Both the position numbers and the translations under genes were made by a program. A model generated the notes under the pieces. The model had not been told where the DNA came from, searched no databases, and was given only the letters and a program-made list of their open reading frames with translations. From an uncultured Anaerolineales bacterium (GTDB taxonomy: Bacteria > Chloroflexota > Anaerolineae > UBA7937): 25,412 nt of DNA. The stretch lies in NCBI GenBank assembly GCA_964442805.1, contig CAYUAM010000001.1, forward strand, positions 1 through 25,412, read 5' to 3'. The stretch's first letter is position 1, and every line of letters starts with the position of its first letter. Below are positions 2,954 to 25,412 of this stretch, in pieces.

Positions 2954-3970
2954 CTAGGGAGAGCCACAAGAGTTCCTGATGACCAGTTCCGTGGGCAAGA
3001 CGATCCTCTGGACAGGAGCCTCTTCTTCTGATGAGCCCTCCACTAGGCTCAGCAACACCTCTACTGCCATGGAACCCATCCGTTCAATCGGCTGGCGTAC
3101 CGTGGTCAATGCTGGCTCAATCGCCGAGGCGATGGGTATGTCATCGAAGCTGACCAGAGCGATGTCTTGGGGTACCTGCCGGCCAGCCTGACGGAGCGCT
3201 TTGAGGGCGCCAATAGCCATCATGTCGCTGGCAACGAAGACGGCGCTGGGGGAGGCGGGGAGCAACCGTTGCATCCCCACCATCCCGCTGCTCTCGGTAA
3301 AGTCTCCCTCGACAATTAGCCCTTCCTCCACGGGAACGCCATGTGCTTGCATGGCCTGACGGTATCCTTCCAGGCGGTCCTGGCCATGGGTCGTGTCCAG
3401 CCTCCCAGTGATGGTGGCGATGCGCCGGTGCCCCAAGCCGATTAGGTGCTCAACCGCCATCCGTGCCCCACCGAGGTTGTCAACGTCCACGGAATGAACT
3501 TGCCTGTTGGGATGCCGCCCCACAGAGACACACGGCACACGGTCGCGCAGCAAATCGGAGATGAGGGGATCGTCCAGTGAGGCTGAAGCCACGATCACGC
3601 CGTCGAGGTAACCGTTGCCCAGCAAGTTCTGGTACATCTCCTGCTGGTCGGCGGAGCCAGCGAACAAGGAGAGCATCAGCTGATACCGGTGGGCGTTACA
3701 AGCCTCAGTGGTTCCACGCAGCAGGATGGAGAAAAAAGGGTCGGTGAAGAGCGTCGTCACCGCCTCGGGGATGACCATACCGATGATCTGGGTGCGGTTA
3801 GTGGCTAGGCTGCGGGCAACCGCATGAGGTTGGTAGCCGGATTTGCGGATAGCCTGCCTGATTCGTTCCCTCGTTTCAGGCCGCACATGGGGGTGGTTGT
3901 TGATGACACGCGAAACGCTTGAACGGGAGACCCCGGCCAGTCGGGCAACTTCTTCCAGCGTAGGGAGCAT
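2954..3970 (-). CDS. LacI-family transcriptional regulator
   Basis: HTH MLPTLEEVARLAGVSRSSVSRVIN and sugar-binding domain (VGALKAL-type motif, DIALVSFDDI). The true start is ATG at 3970; the longer ORF-track start lies inside the IS. Confidence 0.95.
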   Translation of the reverse strand: MLPTLEEVARLAGVSRSSVSRVINNHPHVRPETRERIRQAIRKSGYQPHAVARSLATNRTQIIGMVIPEAVTTLFTDPFFSILLRGTTEACNAHRYQLMLSLFAGSADQQEMYQNLLGNGYLDGVIVASASLDDPLISDLLRDRVPCVSVGRHPNRQVHSVDVDNLGGARMAVEHLIGLGHRRIATITGRLDTTHGQDRLEGYRQAMQAHGVPVEEGLIVEGDFTESSGMVGMQRLLPASPSAVFVASDMMAIGALKALRQAGRQVPQDIALVSFDDIPIASAIEPALTTVRQPIERMGSMAVEVLLSLVEGSSEEEAPVQRIVLPTELVIRNSCGSP

Positions 3971-3980
3971 CACCCGCCTT

Positions 3981-3994
3981 TGGGACCGCTCCCA
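3981..3994. promoter_or_regulatory. LacI-type operator 2 (CelR/CebR-box-like)
   Basis: TGGGACCGCTCCCA, one mismatch from TGGGAGCGCTCCCA. Confidence 0.75.
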
Positions 3995-4052
3995 ACCACA
4001 TCCAGGAAAATGACCACGATTGACGCTCTGAAAAGGCTCGTCGAGCGATTTT

Positions 4053-4070
4053 TTTGGGAGCGCTCTCAAA
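4053..4070. promoter_or_regulatory. LacI-type operator 1 (CelR/CebR-box-like), overlapping predicted +1
   Basis: TTTGGGAGCGCTCTCAAA, 18-bp near-palindrome; core is one mismatch from TGGGAGCGCTCCCA. Confidence 0.8.
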
Positions 4071-4073
4071 ACT

Positions 4074-4102
4074 AGTATACCACAAACCGGAACGCTTGTC
4101 AA
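4074..4102 (-). promoter_or_regulatory. sigma70-type promoter of the lacI-ABC operon
   Basis: Minus strand TTGACA-17 bp-TATACT with extended -10 TG. Confidence 0.85.
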
Positions 4103-4109
4103 GAGTCTG

Positions 4110-5124
4110 TACTCGTTCAGTCGGGGTCTTCCCGTCCAGAGCCTGATGGGGTCGGAAATGGTTGTAAGTCCATTCCCACTCTTGAAGGGCTCGATTGAGG
4201 TGGACCACCTCCATATCTCCATCATAGATCTCGTGGAACTCCTCAGTGTGGGTCCTTTGGGCTCTCGCCACATGGCCATTTAGTTTGGGGGAGCGGGGTG
4301 GCAGGACGAAAAGTCGTATCCCTCGCTCCTGACAAGCCTCTTCAAAGGCGGCCTGGAATTCAGAGCCCCCATCTACCGGCAAGGCCTTTATGGGAAAAGG
4401 CATTCGTTTAGCCAGGGTCTCCAGGAAGCCCACCGCGGTAGCAGAGGTGGCTTTGGTCTGCACCTCCATCACATCCCAACGAGAGACCACATCCCGGGCG
4501 GTGAATTGCTTCAGTACCACTCCTGGCATGAGTCGCACATCCAAAGTATCCACCTCCACCAACTCTCCTGGGATCTCCACCTGGTAGCCCTGGGGCTTGC
4601 GTATGGCGTAGGGGCGAGGATACTGTCGTCTGCGGACGGAAACCCTGTTCCTTACAGACTCTTTGAGCACCCCGCGGGCCTTGGGGTGAGTGAGGATACG
4701 CCCCACCATGGAGGTAGAGACCGGCCAGCCCTCCCGCCTCAGGAGCACCACCAACTTGTCCTTCCCCCAGCGGGGATACTCTTCCCGCAGGTGGAGCACC
4801 GCCTGGGCCAATTCCATACTCCAGGTGGGCCGACGGAGGTTTTTGGGCCTCCGGCTCTTCTCTTCCAATCCCCTGGCCCCTTCCTTTTTGAGCCTCTTCT
4901 GTCAACGGTAGTGCGTTCGCATCCTGAGGATGCTCAGCATCCGAAGGAAGGGTGGAGCGGGAGATGAAGAGAGTCTGGCTGGCCTGGCTGCTAGAGAGAC
5001 CCTGCGCTCTCAGGGCCTCGAAGCAGCGCAGCCAGCGCAGCCTTTCCTGGGCCTTGGGGCTCAGCACGATTGGCCTATGACGGGAGAGGTAGTAAAATGC
5101 TCTGGGTAGTCCAACTACCTGCAT
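4110..5124 (-). pseudogene. IS481/integrase-core DDE transposase pseudogene
   Basis: HTH N-terminus in one frame and rve core (VEVDTLD, VDGGSEF, NGHVARAQRT) in another. Lesions: 37-bp insertion, TGA at 4902-4904 where YRW is expected, catalytic E replaced by A (VER to VAR), C-terminus cut after KTP. Confidence 0.85.
4911..4947. repeat. 37-bp palindromic insertion inside the transposase
   Basis: GTGCGTTCGCATCCTGAGGATGCTCAGCATCCGAAGG contains overlapping inverted repeats GCATCC-TGA-GGATGC and GGATGC-TCA-GCATCC. Removing it restores the frame ...RSTL-YR*QKRLKKEGARGLEEKSRRP. Confidence 0.65.
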
Positions 5125-9056: not shown

Positions 9057-9596
9057 GTGGCTGACGAAAGAAGGAAGAGAGAAACAAGAATATCTGAGGA
9101 TGACACCAGCATCGGTCTAGGCCTTGGTGGCCTCTTCAAGGGGCTAGGCAACTTCATCGAGTTGCTATCCGAGATGGTCGAGGAGGGAGAATCTGAGATT
9201 ACCCGCCAGGGAGAATTCAAGATCAAAGGCCTGGAGAAGGCGCGAGGGGTCTATGGATTCACTGTGAAAACTGGCCTGGGCGGTATTCCTCGTGTCGAGT
9301 CTTTCGGCAACATTCGAGAGACGGAGAGAGGGCCCATAGTTACTGAGACGCGAGAACCCTTAGTCGATATTTTCGATGAAGGGGAAGTGATCCTCGTGCT
9401 GGTGGAATTGCCCGGAGTAGACGAGGAGGAGATAGAGGTCGATCTTCAGGGTGACGTCCTTTCCCTCTCCACCAAGGGGGAGAGGAAATACGTCAAGGAG
9501 ATGTTGCTTCCGCATCTTGTCGACCCGGCGACACTGACTACCAGTTACAGGAACGGGATCCTAGAACTGCGGGTCAACAAGGCGAAAGGTGGCTAG
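9057..9596 (+). CDS. hsp20: Hsp20/alpha-crystallin small heat shock protein, archaeal type (GvpH-like)
   Basis: GTG start with RBS AGGAGGTG; motifs VYGFTVK...FGNIR...REPLVDIFDEG...VELPGV...YRNGILE. Confidence 0.9.
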   Translation: MADERRKRETRISEDDTSIGLGLGGLFKGLGNFIELLSEMVEEGESEITRQGEFKIKGLEKARGVYGFTVKTGLGGIPRVESFGNIRETERGPIVTETREPLVDIFDEGEVILVLVELPGVDEEEIEVDLQGDVLSLSTKGERKYVKEMLLPHLVDPATLTTSYRNGILELRVNKAKGG

Positions 9597-9659: not shown

Positions 9660-10331
9660 ATGAGAAAACTTCTCTACATCCCCTTGATCCATGGCAGCGC
9701 AGACCTGGGCAGCGTGGCTTCGAGTGTGGATGAGAAGGGCTTAGCCATACATGGGGAGGAGAGATGGGAGGAACACAAGCGAACCATCTCCGGATTCTGG
9801 GATTCTATAGAGAGTTGTATGGATTCCCTAGACGTCACTGATTTCCAGATTTATCAGGATGGCCTAGCCGCCGATGGCTCCTTGGGCCAGAGGGTCGTAA
9901 AAGATACAGCCAGAAAGGGCAGCCGGAACTACCAAATAGTGGAGAGACTCATGGCTAGGGGGGCAGAGATAGTGAAGACCGAGGATATCTCCACGGTCCT
10001 CAAGGAGGTGGAACTCATCAAGAAGATAGCCCAATCCAAGTCAGTCCCGGGGCGATTGTTCGCAGCCCTGAAGTATGAACTGGCCAGGAAGAGGCTACTT
10101 GAGGAGAGAGACGAGTTCATAGCCAAGACCATCAACCATAGCCTGAAGCGCAACGGCATCCTCTTCATCGGCGCCTTCCACAATGTGATTCCTAAACTAG
10201 CCAGCGATATCGTCGTGGAGGAGGTCAAGGCCAAGGAGAAGGTGGAGGAGTATCAGAGGAGTTTCCTTCTCAGGGGGAAACAAGAAGGGGTGGAGGAACT
10301 GTCCAGATATCTGGTGGCTCCTGTGGAGTGA
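9660..10331 (+). CDS. Hypothetical protein between hsp20 and cdc48
   Basis: 223-aa ORF in operon orientation with codon style like its neighbours; motifs YIPLIHGSADLGS, IYQDGL, ILFIGAFH. Family not identified. Confidence 0.75.
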   Translation: MRKLLYIPLIHGSADLGSVASSVDEKGLAIHGEERWEEHKRTISGFWDSIESCMDSLDVTDFQIYQDGLAADGSLGQRVVKDTARKGSRNYQIVERLMARGAEIVKTEDISTVLKEVELIKKIAQSKSVPGRLFAALKYELARKRLLEERDEFIAKTINHSLKRNGILFIGAFHNVIPKLASDIVVEEVKAKEKVEEYQRSFLLRGKQEGVEELSRYLVAPVE

Positions 10332-10419
10332 TCTCCTTTTCTTGTTTGCTTAAAAGATGGATGGGAGGTGCGGGTATGCAAATGATGGGGATAACGGGAT
10401 GTGGAGGAGGGAGGTTCCC

Positions 10420-12591
10420 ATGACTAGGAAGGACAAAAAAGAAGAGGGGGTCCTGACTTTGCGGGTTGCAGAAGGGCAGAGCAAGGATGTTGGAAGGGGC
10501 ATTGCCCGCATCGACCCCCAGGATTTCGAGAGGATCGGGGCGGCGATCGGCGATATCGTCGCTATCACCGGGAAGAGAACGACCGTGGCCAAGATCATGC
10601 CTGCCTATCACGCCGACCGAGGAAAAGGCATCGTGCAGATCGACGGCATAATTCGAGAGAACGCTCAAGCCAGTCTAGACGAAAAGGTCCGTATTCACAA
10701 GGTTGATCACCAGATAGCCAAGCAGCTCACCTTGGCCCCTCTGGGCTCGGGGCGGACTCTGCCTCGAGGGTCGGATAGCCGCTACGTTGGAAGGTTGCTC
10801 GAAGGGCTAGTTATCACTGAAGGGGATCGGGTTCGCGTCAACCTCTTCGGTACCCGCTCCGTGGATTTCACCGTGACCGATACCTCTCCTGAGGGCATGG
10901 TTATGGTGGCAGCAGCCACGATCACCAAGATCGAGGGGGAAGGGGCGGAGAGGGAGCGGGGGCTGAAGGTCTCCTATGAGGATATTGGGGGGCTGGGCAA
11001 GGAGATTCACCGCATCCGAGAGATGATCGAGTTGCCATTGAAATACCCTGAGGTCTTCGATCGGTTGGGCATCGAAGCACCAAAGGGCGTCTTGCTACAT
11101 GGCCCTCCGGGCTGCGGCAAGACCCTTATCGCCCGCGCCGTGGCCTCGGAAACATCTGCTCATTTCTTTCCCGTCAACGGCCCGGAGATCATCCACAAGT
11201 TCTACGGTGAGAGCGAGGCGCACCTACGGGAGATCTTCGAGCAAGCGAGCCGCAATGCGCCGAGCATCATCTTCCTAGATGAGATCGACGCTATCGCTCC
11301 CAAACGGGAGGAGGTACATGGCGAGGTGGAGAAACGGGTGGTGGCCCAGCTTTTGGCCCTGATGGATGGCTTGAAGTCCCGAGGCGAAGTGATAGTCATC
11401 GGGGCCACCAACATCCCGAACTCTTTGGACTCTGCTCTACGTCGTCCAGGCCGCTTCGACCGGGAGATCACCATCAGCATCCCGGACAAGAATGGCCGTC
11501 TGGAGATATTGGAGATACACACTAGAGGAATGCCCCTTGCTGATGATGTGGATCTGGAAAGACTGGCCGAGATCACCCACGGCTTCGTGGGAGCTGACCT
11601 GGAGGCTTTGTGCCGCGAAGCGGCCATGATCACCTTGCGTCAACTGATGCCGGATATCGACTTCGCTAAGTCTCACATCCCCTACGAGCGGCTGCTGGAA
11701 TTAGAGGTGACCATGGACAATTTCCTGACCGCTCTAGGAGAGGTCGAACCATCGGCCATCCGTGAGGTCTTCACTGAGGTTCCCGATGTCAGATGGGAGG
11801 ACATTGGGGGCTTGGAGGAGGTCAAGGAGATACTGAAGGAAACTGTTGAATGGCCTCTCAAGTACCCTGAGCTCTTCGCACAGGCCAAGACCGCGCCGCC
11901 TAAAGGGATACTTCTGTACGGGCCGCCGGGCACAGGCAAGACGCTTTTGGCCAAAGGGGTAGCCAACGAAAGCGAAGTGAATTTCATCTCCGTCAAGGGC
12001 CCGGCGCTCATGTCTAAGTGGATGGGGGAGAGCGAAAAGGGGGTGCGTGAGGTATTTAAGAAGGCCCGGCAAGCAGCACCCTGTATCATCTTCTTCGACG
12101 AGATCGATGCCCTAGCCCCCATACGGGGCTATGGCGGCGGAGACTCCCATGTGGCTGAGCGGGTGGTCAGCCAGTTTTTGACGGAGATGGACGGCATTGA
12201 GGAACTGAAAGGGGTAATCGTCTTGGCCGCCACTAACCGTTTGGACATCATCGACCCAGCATTGTTACGTCCTGGCAGGTTCGATGTGCTCATCGAGTTG
12301 CCCCTCCCCGACCGTGAGGCCCGTGAGGCGATCTTCAAGATCCATACCAAGGACAAACCCCTGGCTTCCGATGTTGACCTGAGGATCTTGACGGATATGA
12401 CCGAGGGCTCAGTGGGAGCGGACATCGAATCGATCTGTCGCCAGGCCTCGATGTTAGCCATTCGAGAGTTTCTCAATGAGGAGGTCGACTCTAAATCGTA
12501 TGAGAGTTTTCAGATCACCATGCGACATTTCCGCCAGGCGATAGAAATGGCCGGGAAACTGGCCTCGCCGGGACCATTGACGAAGGGTTAG
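10420..12591 (+). CDS. cdc48: CDC48/p97/VAT-family double AAA+ ATPase
   Basis: ATG 10420 with RBS GGAGG. N-domain [18 protein letters not shown]; Walker A GPPGCGKT and GPPGTGKT; Walker B FLDEID and FFDEID; two RPGRFD arginine-finger motifs. Confidence 0.96.
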
Positions 12592-12617
12592 ACATAGGGA
12601 AGAGTTTGTGGTATAAT
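12589..12617 (+). promoter_or_regulatory. Strong sigma70-type promoter P1 at the end of cdc48
   Basis: TAGACA-17 bp-TATAAT with extended TG. Confidence 0.8.
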
Positions 12618-12623
12618 GTTATT

Positions 12624-12830
12624 GGTATTTCTTCCATTTTTGAGATTAGATATCTTGCTTGTTAGGGTCAGATCCTCGAGATCTAGTGAGGTCGATGAGA
12701 CAGCGTTGGTGTTGAGTGCGCCCCTTCCTGGAGGAAGGTGTCTACCCCAGCGATGACGACTCTCGCCAGGAAGGTCTTTTCGAGGGTCTGACGGAGTGAC
12801 CCCGTCGCAAAGACGGGGTCACTCATTTTT
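12624..12830 (+). ncRNA. Putative structured ncRNA or leader, unit 1 (unassigned family)
   Basis: Lies between promoter P1 and a terminator. 15-bp closing stem 12667-12681/12778-12792 plus nested stems; no credible ORF. Confidence 0.55.
12794..12830 (+). terminator. Intrinsic terminator
   Basis: Perfect 13-bp stem GAGTGACCCCGTC / GACGGGGTCACTC, then ATTTTT. Confidence 0.85.
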
Positions 12831-12933
12831 GGAACCGAAGGCCGTGTATGGGAGAGTGCGTTTTCTTAACCACTTCCGGGTCCGTTATCTTTCGCTGGGC
12901 ATTGGAATTTACGGAAAATTTACGCATAGCCCA

Positions 12934-12962
12934 TTGACACCTCAGTAAGAAGGTGGTAAGAT
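12934..12962 (+). promoter_or_regulatory. sigma70-type promoter P2
   Basis: TTGACA-17 bp-TAAGAT with extended TG; preceded by AATTTACG x2 at 11-bp period (12906-12924). Confidence 0.75.
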
Positions 12963-12968
12963 TATAGA

Positions 12969-13290
12969 TGAATTTGATGAATTTGAGGACTTCCTCTCAT
13001 GACAAAATAGACCCTCTGAAAGGGGAGGGGTGAAGCCAGGGGTGTAAGATGAAAGCAGGCTAGGGTAACCAGCCAGATTACCGCCGCGGGCTCGGCGGCG
13101 AAGAGGATGCTTCGTCAATCTCTTCTGGTGTGGTTGTCCTTCGGTTGGCTTTCTAGTGGGGGAGAGTGCTTCGTGTTAAGGAGTCTGACAAGTACCTCAT
13201 TGAATCTGTGCACTCCTTACTCGGTTAGCTCATTTTGCAGAGGTTTTGAGCCATCTTGACCTTATTGGGTTGAGATGGCTCTTTTTCTTT
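12969..13290 (+). ncRNA. Putative structured ncRNA or leader, unit 2 (unassigned family)
   Basis: Lies between promoter P2 and a terminator. Multibranch pairing: 12993-13010/13229-13243, 13032-13039/13145-13152, 13062-13077/13124-13140, 13177-13184/13212-13219. Confidence 0.55.
13248..13290 (+). terminator. Intrinsic terminator upstream of gvpA
   Basis: GAGCCATCTTGACC / GGTTGAGATGGCTC (14 bp with G-U pairs), then TTTTCTTT. Confidence 0.85.
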
Positions 13291-13507
13291 GAAAGCGGGG
13301 AGTAAAAGGAAAGGGCTGACCGGGGATCAGCCCTCCCGAGGAGAATCGGGCTAAACCATTGCTCAGCATTTGCCAGGCCGGTAATGGATCACCCATCGGC
13401 TATACTCAGGAGGTGTGATTATCCTCCTGGTGCCCTCTCCCCAGGAATTATTCTATCACAGTTTAGTCTAAAAGTAAAGGATTACGGACGAAAGGAGGTG
13501 AGAAGAG

Positions 13508-13720
13508 GTGGCAGTGGAGAAGGCTATCGCGTCCTCGAGCCTGGTCGAAGTTGTCGACCGGGTCTTGGACAAGGGGATCGTGATTGATGCTTGGGCCAGG
13601 ATCTCCCTGGTGGGCATCGAGATACTAGCCCTCGAGGCCAGGGTCGTGGTCGCTGGGGTAGACACCTTCCTCAAGTACGCCGAGGCCATCGGCTTGACGC
13701 CGCTGGCTGCACCGGCCTAG
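13508..13720 (+). CDS. gvpA: Major gas vesicle structural protein GvpA, copy 1
   Basis: 70 aa, [56 protein letters not shown]; GTG start with RBS AGGAGGTG. Confidence 0.98.
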
Positions 13721-13797: not shown

Positions 13798-14010
13798 ATG
13801 GCAGTGGAGAAGGCTATCGGGTCCTCGAGCCTGGTCGAAGTTATCGACCGGGTCTTGGACAAGGGGATCGTGATCGATGCTTGGGCCAGGATCTCCCTGG
13901 TGGGCATCGAGATACTAGCCCTCGAGGCCAGGGTCGTGGTCGCTGGGGTAGACACCTTCCTCAAGTACGCTGAAGCCATCGGCTTAACCCCCTTGGCTGC
14001 TCCGGCGTAG
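13798..14010 (+). CDS. gvpA: Major gas vesicle structural protein GvpA, copy 2
   Basis: 68/70 aa identical to copy 1; the RBS region is duplicated as well. Confidence 0.98.
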
Positions 14011-15016: not shown

Positions 15017-16009
15017 ATGAGCAAAAGAGTTGAAGATTTGAGAAAGGGGGCCTTCATTGAGGAGGGGAGATTGAACGAGTTGAGGGAGCAGAGGCTAACG
15101 GAGGCGGTTCCCGGGCGACCCCCAACTCCTATAATAGAGGTCTCACCACGTTCAGGCTTCGTGGAGACCCCCTTCATCACCAGCATAACCGAACGCGCCC
15201 TAACCTACGTGGAGGGGGGCTTCCCCGTCCATTTTCGGGGACCGACGGGGTGTGGCAAGACGACCCTGGCTATCCACCTGGCCACCAAGATCGGTCGCCC
15301 CGTGATGCTCCTGGTGGGGGACGAGGAGTTTACCACCTCCGACCTAGTGGGCGGGGAGCATGGCTACCATCGTAAGCGGATCCACGACCAGTTCATCCAT
15401 TCAGTCCTGAAGACGGAGGACCGCCTCCATTACCGTTGGGTCGATAGCCAGCTCACGGTAGCCTGCCAAGAAGGGTACACCCTGGTCTACGACGAGTTCA
15501 GCCGCTCCAGGCCGGAGGCCAATAACGTCTTGTTGCCGGTGCTCGAGGAGCGGATACTGATCCTCCCCACCATCAGGAGCACTGAGGGGTATCTGCGGAT
15601 TCACCCTGACTTCACGGCCATCTTCACCTCTAACCCCATGGAATACGCTGGGGTGCATGCTAGCCAGCAGGCGCTGCTGGATCGCATGATCACCATTGAC
15701 ATCACCGACTTCGATCGGGAGACGGAACTGGCCATCACCCAGGCTCGAACGGGCGTCACCGCCGAGGAGGCGGGGAAGATAGTGGATCTGGTCAGGGGCT
15801 TCAGAAAGGCGACGAATTCCGATTCTACCCCCACGGTCAGAAGTTGCATCATGATCGGCAAGATCTTGGCCTGCCAGAACGCCAACGGGGGGAACCTCAC
15901 TTTCGGCCAGATAGTGACTGACGTTTTGGCGCGAGAGCTCAACCCTGATGGCAAGACCGACAAGGAGAGACGAAAGATACTACTCGGTCTCATCAAGAAG
16001 AGCGAGTAG
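15017..16009 (+). CDS. gvpN: Gas vesicle AAA+ ATPase GvpN
   Basis: GFPVHFRGPTGCGKTTLA, YTLVYDEFSRSRPEANNVLL, FTSNPMEYAGVH...ALLDR. Confidence 0.95.
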   Translation: MSKRVEDLRKGAFIEEGRLNELREQRLTEAVPGRPPTPIIEVSPRSGFVETPFITSITERALTYVEGGFPVHFRGPTGCGKTTLAIHLATKIGRPVMLLVGDEEFTTSDLVGGEHGYHRKRIHDQFIHSVLKTEDRLHYRWVDSQLTVACQEGYTLVYDEFSRSRPEANNVLLPVLEERILILPTIRSTEGYLRIHPDFTAIFTSNPMEYAGVHASQQALLDRMITIDITDFDRETELAITQARTGVTAEEAGKIVDLVRGFRKATNSDSTPTVRSCIMIGKILACQNANGGNLTFGQIVTDVLARELNPDGKTDKERRKILLGLIKKSE

Positions 16010-16035
16010 AGCATATCGATAAGGGGAGGAAAACA

Positions 16036-16323
16036 GTGCAGAAACAGCGGGCGTTACGAACCTTTAGACATTGCAAGGGCATGGGTAATATTCGACAGCA
16101 GCGGTCGATCCGCCACTCTATTGGGGAGGGAAGCGTTTTCCAGAAACTAGACCGCATAGCTCGGGAGGAAGAGATACTGCTCAGTAGGGCCAGACTCTGG
16201 GCCTTAAACCTGAGGCGAGAGGAAGAACAGATCGCTAACCTCGACCAGCAAAGAGATGCGATGGTAAGAGGCCTGGAACTCCTTATTAGGGAAGAGGAGG
16301 AGTTAACCTATCCCCCTCGCTAG
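16036..16323 (+). CDS. Small coiled-coil protein, GvpV-like
   Basis: 95 aa directly after gvpN. N-terminal ALRTF motif and coiled-coil C-half resemble GvpV of Serratia-type clusters as I recall them. Confidence 0.55.
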   Translation: MQKQRALRTFRHCKGMGNIRQQRSIRHSIGEGSVFQKLDRIAREEEILLSRARLWALNLRREEEQIANLDQQRDAMVRGLELLIREEEELTYPPR

Positions 16324-16450
16324 GGCGGCGTAGCGCGGATTATTTGGGGTGGTGTTCGATAAAGATGAGCGGGCACCTTCTGGGGGCTTGACCATAACAG
16401 GGGGTGTCCAAGAGGGAGCATCTCCCAATCGATTGGACGGCGTCGATTAT

Positions 16451-16492
16451 GCCTGCCTGTGTCCTGAGAGGTTGCCCGGGCAGGCTTTTTTC
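16451..16492 (+). terminator. Probable intrinsic terminator upstream of hsp20-dnaK
   Basis: GCCTGCC / GGCAGGC stem followed by T6. Confidence 0.6.
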
Positions 16493-16533
16493 AAATAACC
16501 AGGGGGTTCACCGCCCGAACGAGGAGGAAAGGG

Positions 16534-17094
16534 ATGACAAGGGATAAGGAGAAGAAGCGGGATGAAATGGAGGCCATAGACCTGGGCGGTCTCTTCAAGG
16601 GGATCGGCGATCTCATCGAGTTGGTCTCAGGGATGGTGGAGAAGGTGGATCTAGCCAACCTCGATGAAGAGACCCTCTCTAGGCTGCGGCGAGCCAGCCA
16701 GAGCGGGGTCGTAGGAGCACCGAGAAGCGTCTACGGCGTCTCGATACAGCGAGGAGTGGGTGGCATCTCCAGGGTGCAGCCCTTCGGCAATATCCGCCGC
16801 ACCGAGAGAGGCCCTGTCGTTGAGGAGGTGAGGGAGCCCCTCACCGATCTCTTCGAGGAGGATGATCTACTCTTGGTCGTTGCTGAGTTGCCCGGCGTGG
16901 AGGAGAAGGAGATACGGATCGAAATCGAGGACGACACTCTCAAATTCTCCTCCACCGGAAAGAGGAAATACGCCAAGGGACTTCCCCTTCCTTTTCCTGT
17001 CGACGAGAGCACCATGGAGACCACCTACAAGAACGGCATCTTGGAGATCAAGTTGGGCAAGAGAAGCGAGCCGGATGAGGAGAAAACCGAGTGA
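16534..17094 (+). CDS. hsp20: Hsp20/alpha-crystallin protein, paralog of 9057-9596
   Basis: [14 protein letters not shown]...[27 protein letters not shown]...AELPGV...YKNGILE; its stop overlaps the dnaK start (GTGA). Confidence 0.9.
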
Positions 17095-18923
17095 GTAAGG
17101 CGATCGGCATCGACCTGGGAACCACGAATTCGGTGATGGCGGTGATGGAGGCGGGCAGGCCCATGGTCATCCCCAATACGGAGGGCAGCCGCCTCCTCCC
17201 TTCAGTGGTAGCCATCGACGGAAAAGGCGAACGGCTGGTGGGGGAGGTGGCCAAATGGCAAGCCATCATCAATCCCCACAATACGGTCTTCTCCATTAAA
17301 CGTTTCATGGGGCGAAAATTATCCGATGCTTCTGTGCAATATGACAAGGCGCTGGTGCCCTACGAATTGACCGCTGCCGACAACGGCGATCTCCGGATAG
17401 TCATCAAAGGCCGGGGGTACCCACCGCCGGAGATTTCGGCCATGATTCTGCAGAAGTTGAAACGCGATGCCGAGATGTACCTGGGCGAGCCGGTCACTCG
17501 GGCGGTGATCACCGTGCCAGCCTACTTTAACGATAGCCAACGCCAGGCAACTAAAGAGGCGGGGCGAATAGCCGGGCTCGAGGTATTGCGCATCATCAAC
17601 GAGCCCACCGCCTCGGCTCTAGCCTATGATTTTCCCCACGAGAAGCGGGAGACCATCGCCGTCTACGACCTGGGCGGGGGAACCTTCGATATCTCCGTCC
17701 TAGATCTGAGCGCTGGCGTCTTCGAAGTCCTCTCCACCAGCGGCGATACCCATCTGGGTGGGGATGACCTAGACAGAAGGACCATCGAATGGCTCTGCGA
17801 TGGTTTCTTGGAGGAGGAGGACATCGACCTGCGAGAGGACAGGGTAGCCTTGCAAAGACTCAGGGTAGCAGCAGAGCAGGCCAAGATCGAACTCTCGGCC
17901 GCGCAGCAGGCCCAGATCGATCTACCCTTCATTGCTAGAGATGGCAATGACCCCAAGCATCTCAATGTCACCCTCAGCCGCTCGAAATTAGAGCAGTTGG
18001 TGGGCGATCTGATCGAGAGGACCATCGAGCCCTGCTGGCAAGCGTTGGCGGATGCTGGTCTCAGGGTTTCTGATGTGGATCATGTGATCCTGGTGGGCGG
18101 TCAGACGAGGATGCCTCTCGTGGTGCGTACCGTTCGTGAACTCTTCGGGAAGGAGCCCCACCGGGATATCAACCCCGATGAGGTAGTTGCGCTGGGAGCC
18201 GGTATCCAAGCCGGGGTTTTGACCGGCGATGTGAAAGGGGTGCTCCTCATCGATGTCACCCCCTTGACGCTGGGCATAGAGACCTCGGGCGGCGTGGCCA
18301 GCCCCCTCATCCCGCGCAACACCACCATCCCCACTCGCAGGAGCCAGGTCTTCACTACTGCCAGGGATGACCAGAGTAGTGTGGAGATACACGTGATGCA
18401 GGGCGAGCGGGCCATGGCCGTGGAGAATATGACCCTGGGTCGCTTTGTCTTGGAAGGTATCCACCCCGCGCCGCGCGGCGAGCCCAAGATCGAGGTCACT
18501 TTCCAGATCGACGCCGACGGCATCTTGCAGGTTACTGCTCAGGACCAGGCCACAGGTAAGGAACAGCAGATCACCGTCGCCGCTTCCAGCGGCCTCTCAG
18601 AGAAGGAGATCAAGTGCATGGTCAAGGAGGCGAAGGAGTACGCCGAGCGGGACAGAGAGCGACGCGAGGAGATCGAGATCCTCAACCGAGCCGACAGGCT
18701 GGCCTACCGCGCCGAGAAGACGTTGCAGCGGTATGGCGATGACGTGCCGCCAGCCGTCAGGAGGGAGATGAAGAGCAAGGTAGCGGCTCTGCGCGAGGCG
18801 CTGAAGGAAGGAGAGATCCCTGCCGTGAAGAACGCCTGGCAAGGGCTAATTGAGACGGCAGAGAAGATCGCGGCTTGGCTTGATGAGGAGCCGATGGAAA
18901 TAGCACCGCCTCTAGATAGATGA
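17091..18923 (+). CDS. dnaK: Hsp70 chaperone DnaK (cluster-specific paralog)
   Basis: [31 protein letters not shown], linker [12 protein letters not shown]; 610 aa with a short C-tail; no grpE or dnaJ adjacent. Confidence 0.97.
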
Positions 18924-18939
18924 GATGGAGGATGAGGGC

Positions 18940-20019
18940 ATGGCAGAGGAGGCCAAGTATATTTACGGAGTGATCCAGAACGGAGGGAGAAGGACCTTCG
19001 GCTCTATTGGTATAGGTGGACGGGGAGATGAAGTGTATGTGGTCCCCTGTCAGGATTTGGCTGCGGTGGTCAGCGATTGCCCAGCCATAGATTACAAGGC
19101 GGTAAAGGAGAAGGAGAAGATAGTCCGTGATCTGGCGGCACATCAACGCGTGACCGAAGAGGTCATGAAGCACTGTTCCATCCTACCCATGAAGTTCGGC
19201 ACCATGGTGGAGGAGGAGAAGGAGGTGGAAAGCGTATTGCGTCAAGGGTATTTCAACCTCAAGGAGGCTCAGGCCGCCTTCCAGGACAAGGTTGAGGTAG
19301 AAGTGGTGGTCACCTGGGACCTCACTTCCGTCTTCCAGGAAGTTGGCAACGAGGAGCCCATCGCCAAATTGAGAGCCAAGACGGAGGGTAGACCGGGCTT
19401 AAGAGGACTAAACGATAGGATCAACCTGGGCAAGATAGTATATGAATCTCTATCTCGCAGGCGGGAAGATCATCAAAGAGAGATAGTTGAAGTTCTCGCT
19501 AACTGTTCCATCGATAGGCAAAAGAACGCTCTCATGGATGATAGTTTTGTGATGAACGTGGCCTTTCTCATCGATAAGGAGCGACAGGATGAGTTCGATG
19601 AGAGGCTTGAGGAGTTGGATAAGGGAATGGGTGGCGCTTTGAACTTCCGACGCATCGGGCCCCTGCCTCCCTATAGTTTTGCCACCATCGAGGTGCGGCC
19701 TATGACTCACCAAGAGGTCAAGGGGGCCAGGGAGTTATTGGGCCTGGGTGAGAAGGCCAGCCTAGGGGAAATAAAGGAGGCCTACTATGACCTGGCTCAG
19801 GAGTGTCACCCTGATGCCCAGCCGGACGGCAATGCAGGAGAGCGCTTTACCCAAATCGCCCAGGCCTATGAGTTGCTAAAGAGCTACTGTTTGGGACAGG
19901 CAGCGGCCCAAGGAATCACCTCTAAGAAGGCAGCTGCCGAGTATTCTTGCTCCTTTACTCCGGCGGCCATTGAGGAAGGCGTTCTGGTCACCATCAAGCG
20001 TTTGGGGAGAGAGACCTGA
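18940..20019 (+). CDS. gvpF: GvpF/GvpL-family protein with C-terminal J-domain
   Basis: KYIYGVI...LPMKFGT...VEVEV...GPLPPYSF, then ELLGLGEKASLGEIKEAYYDLAQECHPD...FTQIAQAYELL with intact HPD at 19807-19815. Confidence 0.88.
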   Translation: MAEEAKYIYGVIQNGGRRTFGSIGIGGRGDEVYVVPCQDLAAVVSDCPAIDYKAVKEKEKIVRDLAAHQRVTEEVMKHCSILPMKFGTMVEEEKEVESVLRQGYFNLKEAQAAFQDKVEVEVVVTWDLTSVFQEVGNEEPIAKLRAKTEGRPGLRGLNDRINLGKIVYESLSRRREDHQREIVEVLANCSIDRQKNALMDDSFVMNVAFLIDKERQDEFDERLEELDKGMGGALNFRRIGPLPPYSFATIEVRPMTHQEVKGARELLGLGEKASLGEIKEAYYDLAQECHPDAQPDGNAGERFTQIAQAYELLKSYCLGQAAAQGITSKKAAAEYSCSFTPAAIEEGVLVTIKRLGRET

Positions 20020-20834
20020 TGAGCCACGGCTCCGATGACGGGAGAATGATATATCTGTATTGCTTAACCCAGAGCCATGGGGAGGCCCCTTTTCGCCTAT
20101 CGGTCGAGGGGATCGGCGGCCGGGACGGTGAGGTCTACAGCATCCCCTTCCTCGATCTGGCCATGGTAGCCAGCGACTCGCCTCAAGATGAATATGAGAC
20201 TACTCGCCACAATACTGTGCACCATCAATTAGTTTGCGAGGAGGTCCTGAATCACGGCTTCGCTGTTCTCCCGGTCAGATTCGGGACGGTATGCAAGCCC
20301 ACTCGGGGCAAGAGTAGCGCCGAGGAGAAGATCAAGAAGTTGCTCAGGCGAAGGTATGGCGAGTTTCATTCCCTGCTGGGGGAGATGGAGAACAAAGTCG
20401 AGCTGGGGCTGAAAGTCTTTTGGAAGAAGGAGCGTCTCTTCCAAGAGATCGCGGCTGAAAACCAAAATATACGAGAGATGCGGGATCGCATCGCCGCCAA
20501 CCTCTCGGGGGCATTGTCGACCCACTACGAGAGACTGCAACTGGGTACCAGGGTCTATAACGAGATAGAGAATAGGAGGGACATTGAGGCTAGGAGGCTG
20601 GCGCGGGCTCTCAGTCCCCTGGCCGAGAGGTACGAAACCAACAAAGTCCTCACCGATGTGATGATCCTCAACGCTGCCTTCCTGGTTCATCACTCCCGAG
20701 TGGAGGAATTTGATGCCAAAGTCAACGAATTAGATAGGAGATATAGTGATAGGATGACCTTCAAGTATGTGGGCCCCGTGCCTCCCTTTAACTTTGTGGA
20801 ACTGGTCGTGCACTGGGAAGAAGACGAGGAGTGA
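20019..20834 (+). CDS. gvpF: GvpF/GvpL-family protein
   Basis: IYLYC...VLPVRFGT...VELGLKV...LNAAFLV...YVGPVPPFNFV; TGATG overlap with the previous gene. Confidence 0.92.
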   Translation: MSHGSDDGRMIYLYCLTQSHGEAPFRLSVEGIGGRDGEVYSIPFLDLAMVASDSPQDEYETTRHNTVHHQLVCEEVLNHGFAVLPVRFGTVCKPTRGKSSAEEKIKKLLRRRYGEFHSLLGEMENKVELGLKVFWKKERLFQEIAAENQNIREMRDRIAANLSGALSTHYERLQLGTRVYNEIENRRDIEARRLARALSPLAERYETNKVLTDVMILNAAFLVHHSRVEEFDAKVNELDRRYSDRMTFKYVGPVPPFNFVELVVHWEEDEE

Positions 20835-20888
20835 CGGCGTTGCATAGAAAGTGCCCTCCAGCGAGGCGTTCAATAGGAGGTGAGAATC

Positions 20889-20982
20889 ATGGCCAAAAAC
20901 GGCAGTGAAAAAGAGGAGATGGGGCACCGTACAGTGTGCTTATTGTCGGGGCAAGGACGCCTTCGGACTCCTACACGGCTAG
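20889..20982 (+). pseudogene. Remnant of a CxxCxG (DnaJ-type zinc finger) protein
   Basis: A strong RBS (AGGAGGTG) and ATG 20889 are out of frame with GTVQCAYCRGKDAFGLLHG*, which stops at 20982. Confidence 0.45.
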
Positions 20983-21037
20983 TCACAACAGCCGCAAAGG
21001 CGGGGGCAACGTAGCCGAAGGAGAAGGGAATGTAGCC

Positions 21038-21373
21038 ATGTTCCTCATATCATGGTTGGAACACCAATTGCTTAAGACGGTGGGTAAGGTGCTGGCTGTG
21101 CCAGTGACTGTACCGATCAAATCTGCAAGTTGGCTGCTCGAGCAGATCCATGGAGAAGCAGAGGCAGAGCAACTCAATGAGGACCGCGTCAGGCAGCAGT
21201 TGATGGAGTTGGAGATTCGCTACGAGGCGGAAGAGATCGGGAAGGAGGAGTTCCAGGCCCAAGAGGAGGAGTTGCTGGAGCGGTTGAACGCCATTCGCGA
21301 GCGCAAGAAAGATGAGCAGTTTGAGAAAGACGAGACCTGGTGGCGCAGGGTATTCTCCGAGGGGTTCAAGTAG
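21038..21373 (+). CDS. gvpG: Gas vesicle protein GvpG
   Basis: ATG 21038 with RBS AAGGAG; PIKSASWLLEQIHGEAEAEQLNEDRVRQQLMELE...EEFQAQEEELLERL. Confidence 0.88.
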   Translation: MFLISWLEHQLLKTVGKVLAVPVTVPIKSASWLLEQIHGEAEAEQLNEDRVRQQLMELEIRYEAEEIGKEEFQAQEEELLERLNAIRERKKDEQFEKDETWWRRVFSEGFK

Positions 21374-22052: not shown

Positions 22053-22409
22053 TTGGCCAAACAATATGTGGAGCCGGACCGACGTGGGAGCCTCATCGAT
22101 GTTATAGACACCATCCTGGACAAGGGCTTGGTGATCAACGCCGACATCACCGTCTCGGTAGTGGGTGTAGAGCTCTTGGGCATCAAAATAAGGGCCGCCT
22201 TGGCCTCCTTTGAGACCGCAGCCAGACACGGCCTGGAGTTCCCTTCAGGGACCAACATACAAACGCCAGCCTGGGCCGAGGCCCAAATCTCCAAGGAAGA
22301 ATGTCCCCAGTGCAGCAAACGGGTGGCAGCGGAGGAGTTGCTGGAGGTGGGCTGTCCTTGGTGTGGTTGGGTTAGCGCTCGGGCTGAAGCCAAGGCCCTA
22401 GAGGCCTAA
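22053..22409 (+). CDS. gvpJ: GvpJ-like (GvpA family) protein with C-terminal zinc ribbon
   Basis: [44 protein letters not shown], then CPQC-x13-CPWCGW; TTG start. Confidence 0.85.
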
Positions 22410-23961: not shown

Positions 23962-24294
23962 ATGGCTGGCATAGTCGACCTCGACGAAGATAATTTCAAA
24001 CACGGGATCTTGGGACTGGTCATCACTCTGGTGGAGATAATAAGGGATACCCTCAAGTTGCAGGCTTTCAAGCGGATAGAGGGTGGGAGCCTCACTGAGG
24101 AAGAGATCGACAGGTTAGGACGAGCGCTTTCAGATCTCGATATGGCCCTTGATCAGATAAAGGAGGAGCAAGGGATAGCCGACACGGTTCAAAGCGTGAG
24201 AGATGGCTTGGATGAGATCGTGGACGAGATCTTAGATAAGATGGTAAACCCCCTGGGGTGGGCGGAGGAGTTCGAAAAGGAGGTGCAAAGATAA
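23962..24294 (+). CDS. gvpK: Gas vesicle protein GvpK-like
   Basis: LDEDNFKHGILGLVITLVEIIRDTLKLQAFKRIEGGSLTEEEIDRLGRAL. Confidence 0.9.
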   Translation: MAGIVDLDEDNFKHGILGLVITLVEIIRDTLKLQAFKRIEGGSLTEEEIDRLGRALSDLDMALDQIKEEQGIADTVQSVRDGLDEIVDEILDKMVNPLGWAEEFEKEVQR

Positions 24295-24471
24295 AGTGGC
24301 CCGGACCTTCCTCCTCTCCTCGAAGGCGAGCAAATCCTCCTCCACCAGCAAAGGGGTTATCTCTCCAGAGGCTCCTGGAGATTGGGCTACCTCTACCTGA
24401 CGGATTAAAGGCTCCTCTTTCGTCGGAGGAAAGAGGTGCGGGGTGTGATGAGGGCTGATGATGTCGTTTAA
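24291..24471 (+). pseudogene. GRAM/PH-like single-domain pseudogene
   Basis: From 24295 reads SGPDLPPLLEGEQILLHQQRGYLSRGSWRLGYLYLTD*RLLF, with TAA at 24406-24408 where the paralog at 22850 has K (LYLTNKRLF). RBS AGGAGGTG is followed by ATA rather than ATG. Confidence 0.7.
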
Positions 24472-25021
24472 GGAGATCGGGGAAGAGGATCTGAAGAGGG
24501 TCGTCGAGGCTTTGGACCCGGCAAGTGCCCAGATGGTCTGGTATCTCTGGGAGCATAGACATGCCAAGATAGAAGAGTTAAGAGAGGTGTTGGGCGAATC
24601 CTCTCACATGAACGTCTTGGTGCGAATCAAGGAGACGATAAACCCCACAGCCTGCAAGATAGTAGGCAGGCCGATCTTGGTCTTTGAGAAGGGGAGGATA
24701 GACCGCTCTAGCGGGGAGAGGATCCTTCATAGTTGGTGGTTGAACAGAGATTCTGAGAGGAGGCAGATAGAGGGGGAGAAGTTGGTGGATATCTTTGACG
24801 AAGGGGACCATATCTTACTCATCGTGGAACTGGTCGGTTTTGATGAAAAAGGTATCCAATTGGCCGTAGAGGATGAGACGCTTGTGTTGAAGGCGGAAGC
24901 CCCTGGCCGAAGTGTGCAGGAGGAGATACCCCTTCCTCCCCAGGTTGATGGCCAAAGGTTTGAGATGACCTATCGCAATAACATGTTGCAAGTCAGGTTT
25001 GAGAAGGAGCAAGCAAGATGA
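24458..25021 (+). CDS. Winged-helix-like N-domain fused to an Hsp20/alpha-crystallin domain
   Basis: N-half LDPASAQMVWYLWEHRHAKIEELREVLG; C-half LVDIFDEGDHILLIVELVG...EEIPLP...YRNNMLQVRF. Confidence 0.78.
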   Translation: MMSFKEIGEEDLKRVVEALDPASAQMVWYLWEHRHAKIEELREVLGESSHMNVLVRIKETINPTACKIVGRPILVFEKGRIDRSSGERILHSWWLNRDSERRQIEGEKLVDIFDEGDHILLIVELVGFDEKGIQLAVEDETLVLKAEAPGRSVQEEIPLPPQVDGQRFEMTYRNNMLQVRFEKEQAR

Positions 25022-25412
25022 ATACCCCTTTAGAGAGAGAGCGACAAGCCAGGTATATATACGGCGTTATTCCCCGCCTAGATAAAGAGAGCCTTGGCCC
25101 AATCGGCATCAGGGGAAATACGGTCTACCCCATCTCCCATAGGGAGTTAAGCGCCCTGGTTCACGACTGCTCGCCGGAACCGTATCGTGGAGATGAGGAG
25201 GAGGTCAAAGAATGGGTAGCGGCTCATGCCGCGGTAGTCGATGCTGCCTGGGCAGAGGCTGAAACCGTGTTGCCCATGAGTTTCGATGTCATCGTCAAGG
25301 GCGATGAGGAAAGGAGCGCTGAGGAAAACGTGCGAAAGTGGCTGGAGGAGGGGTATGCGACGCTGAAAGCCAAATTGGAGGAGTTGAGAGGTAAGGTTGA
25401 GCTGGGCGTTCA
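25018..25412 (+). CDS. gvpL: GvpL/GvpF-family protein, third paralog (3' truncated by window)
   Basis: Not in the ORF track. ATGA overlap at 25018; MNTPLERERQARYIYGVIP...LSALVHDC...AHAAVVD...VLPMSFD...LRGKVELGV. Confidence 0.88.
   Translation, partial: MNTPLERERQARYIYGVIPRLDKESLGPIGIRGNTVYPISHRELSALVHDCSPEPYRGDEEEVKEWVAAHAAVVDAAWAEAETVLPMSFDVIVKGDEERSAEENVRKWLEEGYATLKAKLEELRGKVELGV

Follow-up and report, generated by a model that had tools for sequence, protein, structure and literature searches.

A GvpF/L-J-domain fusion protein of gas-vesicle clusters: a probable class-C J-protein linked to a distinct lineage of DnaK

Class-C (type III) J-proteins choose their client or site of action with a domain that is separate from the J-domain. 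The HPD motif of J-domains acts at R167 and the interdomain linker of Hsp70 and thereby triggers Hsp70 ATP hydrolysis (PMC7289447). In the gas vesicle field, it is an open question how the very hydrophobic and aggregation-prone shell protein GvpA is kept soluble and inserted into the shell. In Halobacterium, the only direct partner of GvpA is GvpF, and GvpL is a hub that binds all accessory Gvps (PMC7688916). For the Bacillus megaterium system, GvpF was proposed to be a chaperone that hands GvpA2 over to GvpG, a proposal from interaction studies that rests on indirect grounds (PMC11445434). Here, we analyzed a stretch of 25,412 nucleotides from an uncultured Anaerolineales bacterium (Chloroflexota; assembly GCA_964442805.1, contig CAYUAM010000001.1, positions 1 to 25,412), in the following termed the window, which contains a gas-vesicle (gvp) cluster with a dnaK gene and, behind it, a gene for a GvpF/L domain fused to a J-domain. 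We consider it likely that this fusion is a class-C J-protein, part of a gas-vesicle proteostasis module, whose GvpF/L fold directs Hsp70 to clients of the GvpA family.

The arrangement recalls the HscB-HscA-IscU system, as in both cases a specialized class-C J-protein without the glycine/phenylalanine-rich (G/F) and zinc-finger regions is combined with a specialized Hsp70 paralog, and the operon of the served pathway carries the genes of both. It differs in that the Hsp70 is of the DnaK type, passing the DnaK equivalog models and missing the HscA cut-offs, in that targeting would be by a GvpF/L fold instead of the helical bundle of HscB, in that the proposed client is a structural shell protein and not an iron-sulfur scaffold, and in that the cluster Hsp70 is absent from about 40% of the clusters. 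With canonical GvpF and GvpL (4QSG, 6L5D, and the Halobacterium proteins), the fusion shares the Pfam family and the fold over the full length as well as the location of its gene in a gvp cluster, but it adds a C-terminal J-domain and a tail, is a third paralog, and scores far below the NCBIfam equivalog cut-offs. Auxilin/GAK, which acts with Hsc70 in clathrin uncoating, is comparable in that a J-domain is fused to a module for a self-assembling lattice and Hsp70 is thus brought there; it is eukaryotic, however, with unrelated targeting domains, and disassembly is just one reading for the fusion. TopJ, without which Mycoplasma does not assemble its terminal organelle, is likewise a bacterial J-protein devoted to a cellular structure, but TopJ, DjlA, and CbpA show no similarity to the fusion beyond the J-domain and use the housekeeping DnaK. 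Like the bi-chaperone disaggregase of IbpA/B, DnaK/DnaJ/GrpE, and ClpB, the cluster has small heat-shock proteins (sHsps), an Hsp70, a J-protein, and a double-ring AAA+ ATPase; in contrast to it, the AAA+ protein is of the CDC48 type (CDC48_N, CDC48_2) and not ClpB, no GrpE was found in the clusters analyzed, and the J-protein would be client-specific.

The span 17091-20019 consists of two plus-strand open reading frames (ORFs), dnaK and then the fusion. Counted from its first ATG (18925), the fusion ORF encodes 364 residues, but translation more likely starts at the ATG at 18940, which is preceded by GGAGGA and gives a 359-residue product, as in the database. The GvpL_GvpF profile of Pfam (PF06386) matched residues 11-253 with 202.7 bits (E 1.3e-59) and was covered from position 2 to 244 of its 245 positions, which corresponds to a full-length domain. 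The DnaJ profile matched residues 270-319 (profile positions 4-54 of 63) with 48.6 bits (cut-off 27.8; E 8.6e-13), and the translation places the HPD motif at residues 295-297. A sequence search of the PDB with the fusion returned GvpF with 4QSG (E 2.6e-14) and 6L5D (E 9e-13), and J-domain relatives as well. An alignment of 148 sequences yielded an AlphaFold2 model with a predicted local distance difference test score (pLDDT) of 95.5 and a predicted template modeling score (pTM) of 0.90. Its J-domain is composed of the helices I (262-271), II (280-294), and III (302-328), and the loop that joins helices II and III contains HPD. Foldseek matched the model to the GvpF crystal structures (6L5D, target template modeling score (TMt) 0.84; 4QSG, 0.78) and to the J-domain of DnaK-bound DnaJ (5NRO_B, TMt 0.81, root mean square deviation 2.6 Å). 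The E-values of these matches all lie well outside what chance would give. These data confirm the initial annotation of this DNA, which had recognized a complete GvpF/L domain followed by a J-domain with an intact HPD motif.

The J-domain lacks the canonical helix IV; instead, helix III is extended and is followed by a conserved tail that is about 35 residues long, with C322 and S343 being nearly invariant in an alignment of 27 homologs. The helix III residues F308, A314, and L318 are conserved in the fusion homologs, as they are in working J-domains, and the J-domain of the window protein looks functional by its sequence. Parts typical of classes A and B (G/F region, zinc finger, C-terminal domain) are absent, as the DnaJ models of NCBIfam matched J-domain positions only (about 4-58), and outside the J-domain the protein consists of the GvpL_GvpF domain, which would be the targeting domain in their place. 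The J-domain models of TopJ, DjlA, and CbpA were also matched, with sub-threshold scores. In sequence and fold, the fusion is thus a class-C J-protein and at the same time a member of the GvpF/L family. It reached 82 bits with the cyanobacterial GvpF model of NCBIfam (cut-off 350) and 70 bits with the GvpL model (cut-off 200), and no model of NCBIfam 20.0 was passed. The GvpF and GvpL positions of the cluster are held by other genes, and the fusion is thus a third paralog. Among the paralogs, it alone bears a J-domain. By its scores as well as by gene order, orthology of the fusion to canonical GvpF or GvpL is excluded.

The architecture is widespread. We searched a collection of 5.8 billion proteins, grouped into 90%-identity clusters, and considered the best 120 clusters for the window fusion. 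Both Pfam domains were present in 119 of these 120 matches listed, the exception being the shorter P0043 (334 residues), which has the GvpF/L domain alone. A search seeded with a Desulfobacteraceae homolog listed 120 further clusters, of which only 3, short or partial, were without a J-domain call. The source databases name these proteins "GvpL/GvpF family gas vesicle protein", "hypothetical protein", or, in one case, "Chaperone protein DnaJ". A HMMER scan of 50%-identity representatives gave 362 proteins at E <= 1e-30, and nearly all of the best 150 of them align through the J-domain, which brings the architecture to at least about 140 clusters at 50% identity. Scanning one genome per GTDB species yielded 484 relatives, and the best 80 of the corresponding loci are the basis of all locus counts below. 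These 80 loci come from metagenome-assembled genomes (MAGs) whose labels name about a dozen phyla or candidate divisions, including Chloroflexota (Anaerolineae, Dehalococcoidia, Chloroflexia), Zixibacteria, Ignavibacteria, Actinomycetota, Bacillota, Syntrophales, Desulfobacteraceae, Nitrospirota, Planctomycetes, Aerophobetes, Omnitrophota, and others. No cultured organism with the fusion was found: the source-named homologs among the 240 listed were all from MAGs or metagenomes, and 80 of 80 loci were from MAGs or uncultured isolates. The fusion family is therefore large, and it is unnamed. We found no description of the fusion or of a chaperone module in the literature on gas vesicles, of which our coverage is incomplete, and the combination of fused parts, dedicated DnaK lineage, and breadth appears to be undescribed, with both parts and principle being known.

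The initial annotation had made its proposal dependent on the conservation of HPD in homologous fusions. HPD is invariant in the 27-sequence alignment, and it is present in 137 of 148 aligned homologs (93%), whose identity reaches down to about 30%, as well as in 79 of 80 loci, the remaining one being cut by a contig end. The conservation seen thus does not refute that proposal. In addition, the J region is under purifying selection in the window's clade, where the nonsynonymous rate (dN) was below the synonymous rate (dS) in 12 of 12 comparisons, with ratios of about 0.15-0.5 that are similar to those of the GvpF/L domain.

The second line of evidence concerns the DnaK that is encoded in front of the fusion. 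It matched HSP70 of Pfam with E 6e-239 and passed the NCBIfam DnaK equivalogs NF001413 (907.7 bits, cut-off 648) and TIGR02350 (883 bits, cut-off 822.55), and it remained below the HscA cut-offs; the distant cluster DnaKs passed NF001413 and missed the cut-off of TIGR02350. Its closest relatives are other cluster DnaKs with identities of 83-88% and 68-72%, followed by housekeeping DnaKs of Chloroflexota with 64-68%, and the housekeeping reference was verified for Tepidiforma thermophila, in which dnaK lies within hrcA-grpE-dnaK. In a neighbour-joining tree with 100 bootstraps and Escherichia coli as outgroup, 27 of 27 gvp-linked DnaKs grouped together and apart from the Chloroflexota housekeeping DnaKs (99 of 100 bootstraps), and this clade includes 3'-terminal copies from MAGs of Dehalococcoidia, Syntrophales, and Desulfobacteraceae. 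Position 427 (E. coli numbering, also below), which we take to lie in the substrate-binding cleft, is a threonine in 27 of 27 cluster DnaKs and a serine in 22 of 22 housekeeping DnaKs. The C-terminal tail motif is missing in 23-24 of the 27 cluster DnaKs, including that of the window. R167, N170, T173, and D393 are kept in all cluster DnaKs compared, and D481 is present in the window DnaK and replaced by asparagine in six distant cluster DnaKs; of these, R167, D393, and D481 are known as J-responsive residues (PMC7289447). The window dnaK is found in the context of the gvp cluster and not in an hrcA-grpE-dnaK-dnaJ context. The separate clade fits the view of a dedicated Hsp70/J pair.

To compare gene neighbourhoods, we ran all window proteins by tblastn against the 80 loci. 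The gene pair that the initial annotation had emphasized, with the fusion directly behind dnaK, is real in the window, where the dnaK stop is followed by the first ATG of the fusion after 1 nt and by the likelier ATG after 16 nt. This is not a general rule, however, as dnaK is immediately upstream of the fusion only in the window's Anaerolineales clade (8 of 80 loci; L001-L009, at least 57% identity). Outside this clade, dnaK forms the 3' end of the cluster, 4-10 kb downstream of the fusion and after GvpK, a GvpF/L paralog, and a GvpJ/M-like gene. Altogether, dnaK was found within the fetched flanks of 28 of 80 loci, in 18 of the 29 loci of at least 19 kb, and in 12 of the 20 loci with 2.5 kb or more of sequence behind the last gvp gene, which amounts to about 60% of the well-covered loci. 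Bacterial genomes typically hold one to few dnaK genes, and the linkage between dnaK and the clusters is therefore far above chance. In the window's clade, the junctions also suggest co-expression: the Hsp20 stop overlaps the GTG start of dnaK (GTGA), dnaK nearly abuts the fusion, and the fusion stop overlaps the ATG of the following gvpF. A promoter and terminator scan of 16000-21000 revealed nothing exceeding background. The genes gvpA, N, G, J, and K accompany the fusion in the window and likewise in the 80 loci. The gene downstream of the fusion was gvpF in 46 of 80 loci and a homolog of ORF 9660-10331 in 19, and the order after the fusion (gvpF, gvpG, gvpJ with Hsp20, gvpK, the GvpF/L paralog, and a gvpM-like gene) broadly mirrors gvpFGHIJKLM of Halobacterium.

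The comparative data thus give good support to a functional Hsp70/J link that is dedicated to gas vesicles. According to our proposal, the GvpF/L domain would hold a hydrophobic protein of the GvpA family (GvpA, GvpJ, or GvpM) or a complex of accessory proteins, and the J-domain would via HPD trigger ATP hydrolysis by Hsp70, which would then clamp the bound client. The preferred Hsp70 would be the cluster's own gas-vesicle DnaK, or the housekeeping DnaK where a cluster dnaK is absent. The DnaK/fusion pair would be part of a wider module with the Hsp20s, the CDC48-like AAA+ ATPase, and the TraB-like protein described below, and this module would keep shell proteins competent for assembly or clear mis-assembled or collapsed shell material. 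The data demonstrate the architecture, the conservation of HPD, the purifying selection, the linkage of the genes, and the distinct lineage of DnaK, whereas Hsp70 stimulation, the identity of the client, the preference for a partner, and the direction of the reaction (assembly or disassembly) are the parts of this proposal that we infer. The sites of GvpA nucleation or growth, which the initial annotation had put forward, are a putative place of action, and the Hsp20s, the AAA+ protein, and the TraB-like protein would fit disaggregation or quality control equally well.

Several observations weigh against our proposal. Firstly, dnaK was not nearby in about 40% of the well-covered fusion loci (8 of 20; 11 of the 29 long loci), and the J-domain of the fusion must therefore also manage with the housekeeping DnaK. 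The initial view of a specialized J-protein for the cluster DnaK stands only in part: the distinct DnaK clade and the linkage speak for it, but the housekeeping DnaK would have to serve some clusters. Secondly, the best-conserved neighbour of the fusion is the CDC48-like gene and not dnaK. Thirdly, tblastn with the GrpE of Tepidiforma detected no grpE in the window and the 80 loci. Fourthly, the only non-Chloroflexota housekeeping sequence in the DnaK distance tree was that of E. coli. Fifthly, AlphaFold2 packed the J-domain rigidly on the GvpF/L domain (at the pTM given above). Sixthly, HPD was missing in 11 of 148 homologs, including a subgroup with full loss, indicating that the J-like domain can persist without Hsp70 stimulation. 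Lastly, helix II of the window protein has K284, Y288, D289, and E293, and its clade thus carries Y/D/E at positions where the family consensus (K284, R288, R289, K293) has R/R/K. As helix II is the Hsp70-contacting face of J-domains and binds subdomain IIa (PMC7289447), these changes lie on the contact surface, and Hsp70 binding may be altered in the window's clade. The aligned segment of DnaK subdomain IIa showed no obvious charge swap that would compensate for them.

A different direction of the reaction is a real possibility, if one short of probable. In such a case, the fusion would mark mis-assembled GvpA aggregates or collapsed shells and recruit Hsp70 together with the Hsp20s and the CDC48-like unfoldase for extraction and recycling or degradation of shell protein instead of vesicle building, with the TraB-like protein perhaps being a protease, and only the direction would distinguish this from our proposal. 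The gene order Hsp20 - CDC48-like - fusion recurs and is the most conserved neighbourhood: the CDC48-like gene is directly upstream of the fusion in 44 of 80 loci, usually with an Hsp20 gene before it, and is present anywhere in 53 of 80 loci, with Hsp20 in 55 of 80. A combination of sHsp, Hsp70/J, and AAA+ unfoldase is the composition of bacterial disaggregases, and this likeness makes turnover or quality control a serious rival or complement. The gene of the TraB/PrgY/GumN-like protein also accompanies the module. On the other hand, recruitment by Hsp70 is known for ClpB, and we know of no CDC48-type ATPase that is recruited in this manner. Moreover, the fusion gene is placed among assembly genes and is apparently translationally coupled to gvpF, and model clusters build vesicles without the module, which would be equally compatible with a boost of assembly. 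For the CDC48-like ATPase, no description in a gvp context was found in the literature, again with incomplete coverage.

The assignment of the TraB-like protein is weak, which also weighs against a turnover function. Homologs of ORF 9660-10331 occur in 31 loci, beside the fusion, DnaK, or the CDC48-like gene, and their invariant residues are H11, YQDG65-68, N90, TE107-108, RD150-151, and H174. Ten of 23 homologs weakly matched PF01963 (TraB/PrgY/GumN; best E 1.3e-4), and the window copy had neither a Pfam match nor a PDB profile match. The sequences thus hint at a possible TIKI/TraB-type hydrolase. Neither Pfam nor PDB profiles supported the idea that this protein could be a GrpE-like exchange factor, the weak TraB/PrgY/GumN match being the only lead.

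We regard it as rather doubtful that the J-domain is served by the housekeeping DnaK, with the cluster dnaK being an independent extra chaperone that came to lie beside the fusion by a local rearrangement without specific pairing. The restriction of the adjacency to the window's clade would agree with this, as would the absence of a cluster dnaK from 8 of the 20 "complete" and 11 of the 29 long loci, and in helices II and III the consensus J-domain of the family carries ordinary residues. As no grpE was found in any cluster, host co-factors of Hsp70 would be needed anyway. However, the cluster DnaKs are a single lineage with its own signatures that accompanies gvp clusters across phyla, and the window's clade has moved dnaK beside the fusion with a gap of only 1-16 nt.

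J-proteins that are linked in cis to a lattice- or complex-binding module typically drive disassembly, as known from auxilin and HscB. Hsp70 could thus dismantle the accessory nucleation complex (GvpF/G/J/K/L/M) or free the fusion from the shell, and GvpA itself would not be chaperoned. GvpL-type hubs bind all accessory Gvps (PMC7688916), and the contact between GvpF and GvpA is transient, with GvpG displacing it (PMC11445434), which would agree with such recycling. We consider such recycling unlikely.

That the J-like domain is just a structural appendage of GvpF/L comparable to Pam16/Tim16, with no Hsp70-stimulating role, is very improbable, since 93% of the homologs keep HPD over a sequence divergence of about 70% and beyond the borders of phyla, the clusters are linked to a DnaK lineage of their own, and helix III retains F308, A314, and L318, as working J-domains do, although 7 of the 11 homologs without HPD have lost the motif entirely while keeping helices II and III, AlphaFold2 packs the J-domain and the conserved tail rigidly on the GvpF/L domain, and helix II of the window protein is less basic than the consensus.

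The preferred reading of the fusion as a client-targeting J-protein has implications beyond this cluster. The widespread GvpF/L-J fusion together with a DnaK lineage of its own is genomic evidence, independent of interaction studies, that GvpF/L proteins are client adaptors of a chaperone pathway, and it suggests that the organisms with the fusion assign a dedicated Hsp70 machine to very hydrophobic shell proteins. For the Hsp70 field, the fusion would add to the class-C J-proteins of bacteria a new member that has its own Hsp70 paralog, following a logic comparable to that of HscB/HscA. Proteotoxicity limits the heterologous expression of gas vesicles as acoustic reporter genes, and in E. coli the majority of clusters do not work (PMC12848028, PMC10344784); clusters with their own set of Hsp70, J-protein, sHsps, and AAA+ ATPase suggest parts that could ease this limit. 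A study of the Desulfobacterium vacuolatum cluster mentions neither DnaK nor a J-protein (PMC10344784).

A more far-reaching and in our view doubtful idea is that the fusion, the gvp-DnaK, the CDC48-like AAA+ ATPase, the Hsp20s, and the TraB-like protein form an ATP-driven machine, devoted to a single prokaryotic organelle, that both inserts GvpA-family subunits into the shell and removes them again. If this were true, the vesicles of anaerobic, mostly uncultured lineages would be actively remodelled or recycled instead of being built once and diluted by growth, and the fusion would mediate cooperation between Hsp70 and the CDC48-type unfoldase. To our knowledge, such a partnership between a CDC48-type unfoldase and Hsp70 has not been described in bacteria.

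The gvp cluster forms one plus-strand block from about 9057 to the window end, and its features are listed in Table 1.

Table 1. Features of the window, with the domains of the fusion protein (positions in nucleotides of the window).
Feature	Position	Strand	Basis or remark
Solute-binding protein, LacI regulator, IS-type (insertion sequence) integrase	upstream of cluster	-	
Hsp20/GvpH-like sHsp	9057-9596	+	Pfam HSP20 and GvpH
Conserved 223-residue protein, weakly TraB/PrgY/GumN-like	9660-10331	+	homologs in 31 loci
CDC48-like double AAA+ ATPase	10357-12591	+	Pfam CDC48_N, CDC48_2, 2x AAA
Gene-free stretch, 916 nt	12592-13507		without ORFs of at least 60 residues
gvpA, two copies in tandem	13508-13720, 13798-14010	+	
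Helical repeat-rich protein, 203 residues	14119-14730	+	
GvpN	15017-16009	+	
Small ORF	16036-16323	+	
Hsp20 (sHsp, GvpH-like)	16534-17094	+	Pfam HSP20 E 4e-7
DnaK (Hsp70 paralog), 610 residues	17091-18923	+	Pfam HSP70, NCBIfam
GvpF/L-J-domain fusion	18925-20019	+	Pfam GvpL_GvpF + DnaJ, AlphaFold2, Foldseek
GvpL_GvpF domain of the fusion	18955-19683	+	Pfam
J-domain of the fusion	19708-19908	+	
HPD motif of the fusion	19807-19815	+	translation
Conserved C-terminal tail of the fusion	19909-20016	+	H334-339, E341-343, H346-350, E353-358; high pLDDT in AlphaFold2
GvpF, canonical position, before GvpG	20019-20834	+	Pfam GvpL_GvpF E 2.6e-64
GvpG	20936-21373	+	
ORF without assigned identity	21472-21870	+	
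GvpJ with Cys-rich end	22053-22409	+	
Zinc-ribbon ORF, 97 residues	22485-22778	+	zinc-ribbon matches
GvpJ/M-like protein, 363 residues	22850-23941	+	two GRAM/PH-like stretches, C-terminal zinc ribbon
GvpK	23962-24294	+	
Hsp20-like	24458-25021	+	
GvpF/L paralog, GvpL position	25018-25412	+	Pfam GvpL_GvpF E 1.7e-30; cut by window end

The cluster contains three genes of Hsp20-type sHsps (9057-9596, 16534-17094, and 24458-25021). The last of them, which like GvpK precedes the GvpF/L paralog at the window end, has a stop codon on which this paralog begins, and the position of the paralog is matched in the loci L002 and L003. GvpJ has a C-terminal addition with a CxxC...CxxC pattern. In the clade of the window, the C-terminus of the cluster DnaK is a conserved motif similar to EEPMEIAP.

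Two open reading frames in the wider data set had initially looked like larger chaperone fusions and were rejected. The 1002-residue frame of locus L007, which would combine DnaK with GvpF/L and the J-domain, has a masked run of N at its junction. The 767-residue DnaK match P0278, which was a candidate for an Hsp20-DnaK fusion, is a DnaK of the housekeeping type in which an internal segment is duplicated, probably as an assembly artefact.

Among the homologs without HPD, single changes gave HPN, HPA, QPD, and RPD; HPN is found in P0002, which has 89% identity to the window protein. Complete loss, for example to QRS, QSH, or RRN, defines the subgroup of P0172, P0181, P0212, P0220, P0226, P0239, and P0256 (loci L083-L085). 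In L083, the GvpF/L protein with the J-like domain is accompanied by GvpF, GvpG, GvpO, and a GvpA-family gene. The contigs of P0220, P0181, and P0256 span just 1.6-3.7 kb.

The gene-free stretch separates the AAA+ gene from the first gvpA. It contains two long hairpins, each with T-runs behind it, at 12794-12824 (13 pairs) and 13248-13281 (15 pairs) and promoter-like sites at 12589-12617 and 12934-12962, which together may be terminators and a gvpA leader. The products of the tandem gvpA genes are 96% identical (67 of 70 residues). The protein encoded directly behind gvpA has repeated units of the type ELAEARSQLKS...ALM..L, and its sole match was a sub-threshold one to Apolipoprotein; it may be a GvpC-like outer stiffening protein. 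Upstream of the cluster, between the LacI-type regulator and the gvp genes, the minus strand at 3876-5124 carries the ORF of the IS-type integrase (rve core) and an overlapping ORF with a faint, sub-threshold helix-turn-helix match.

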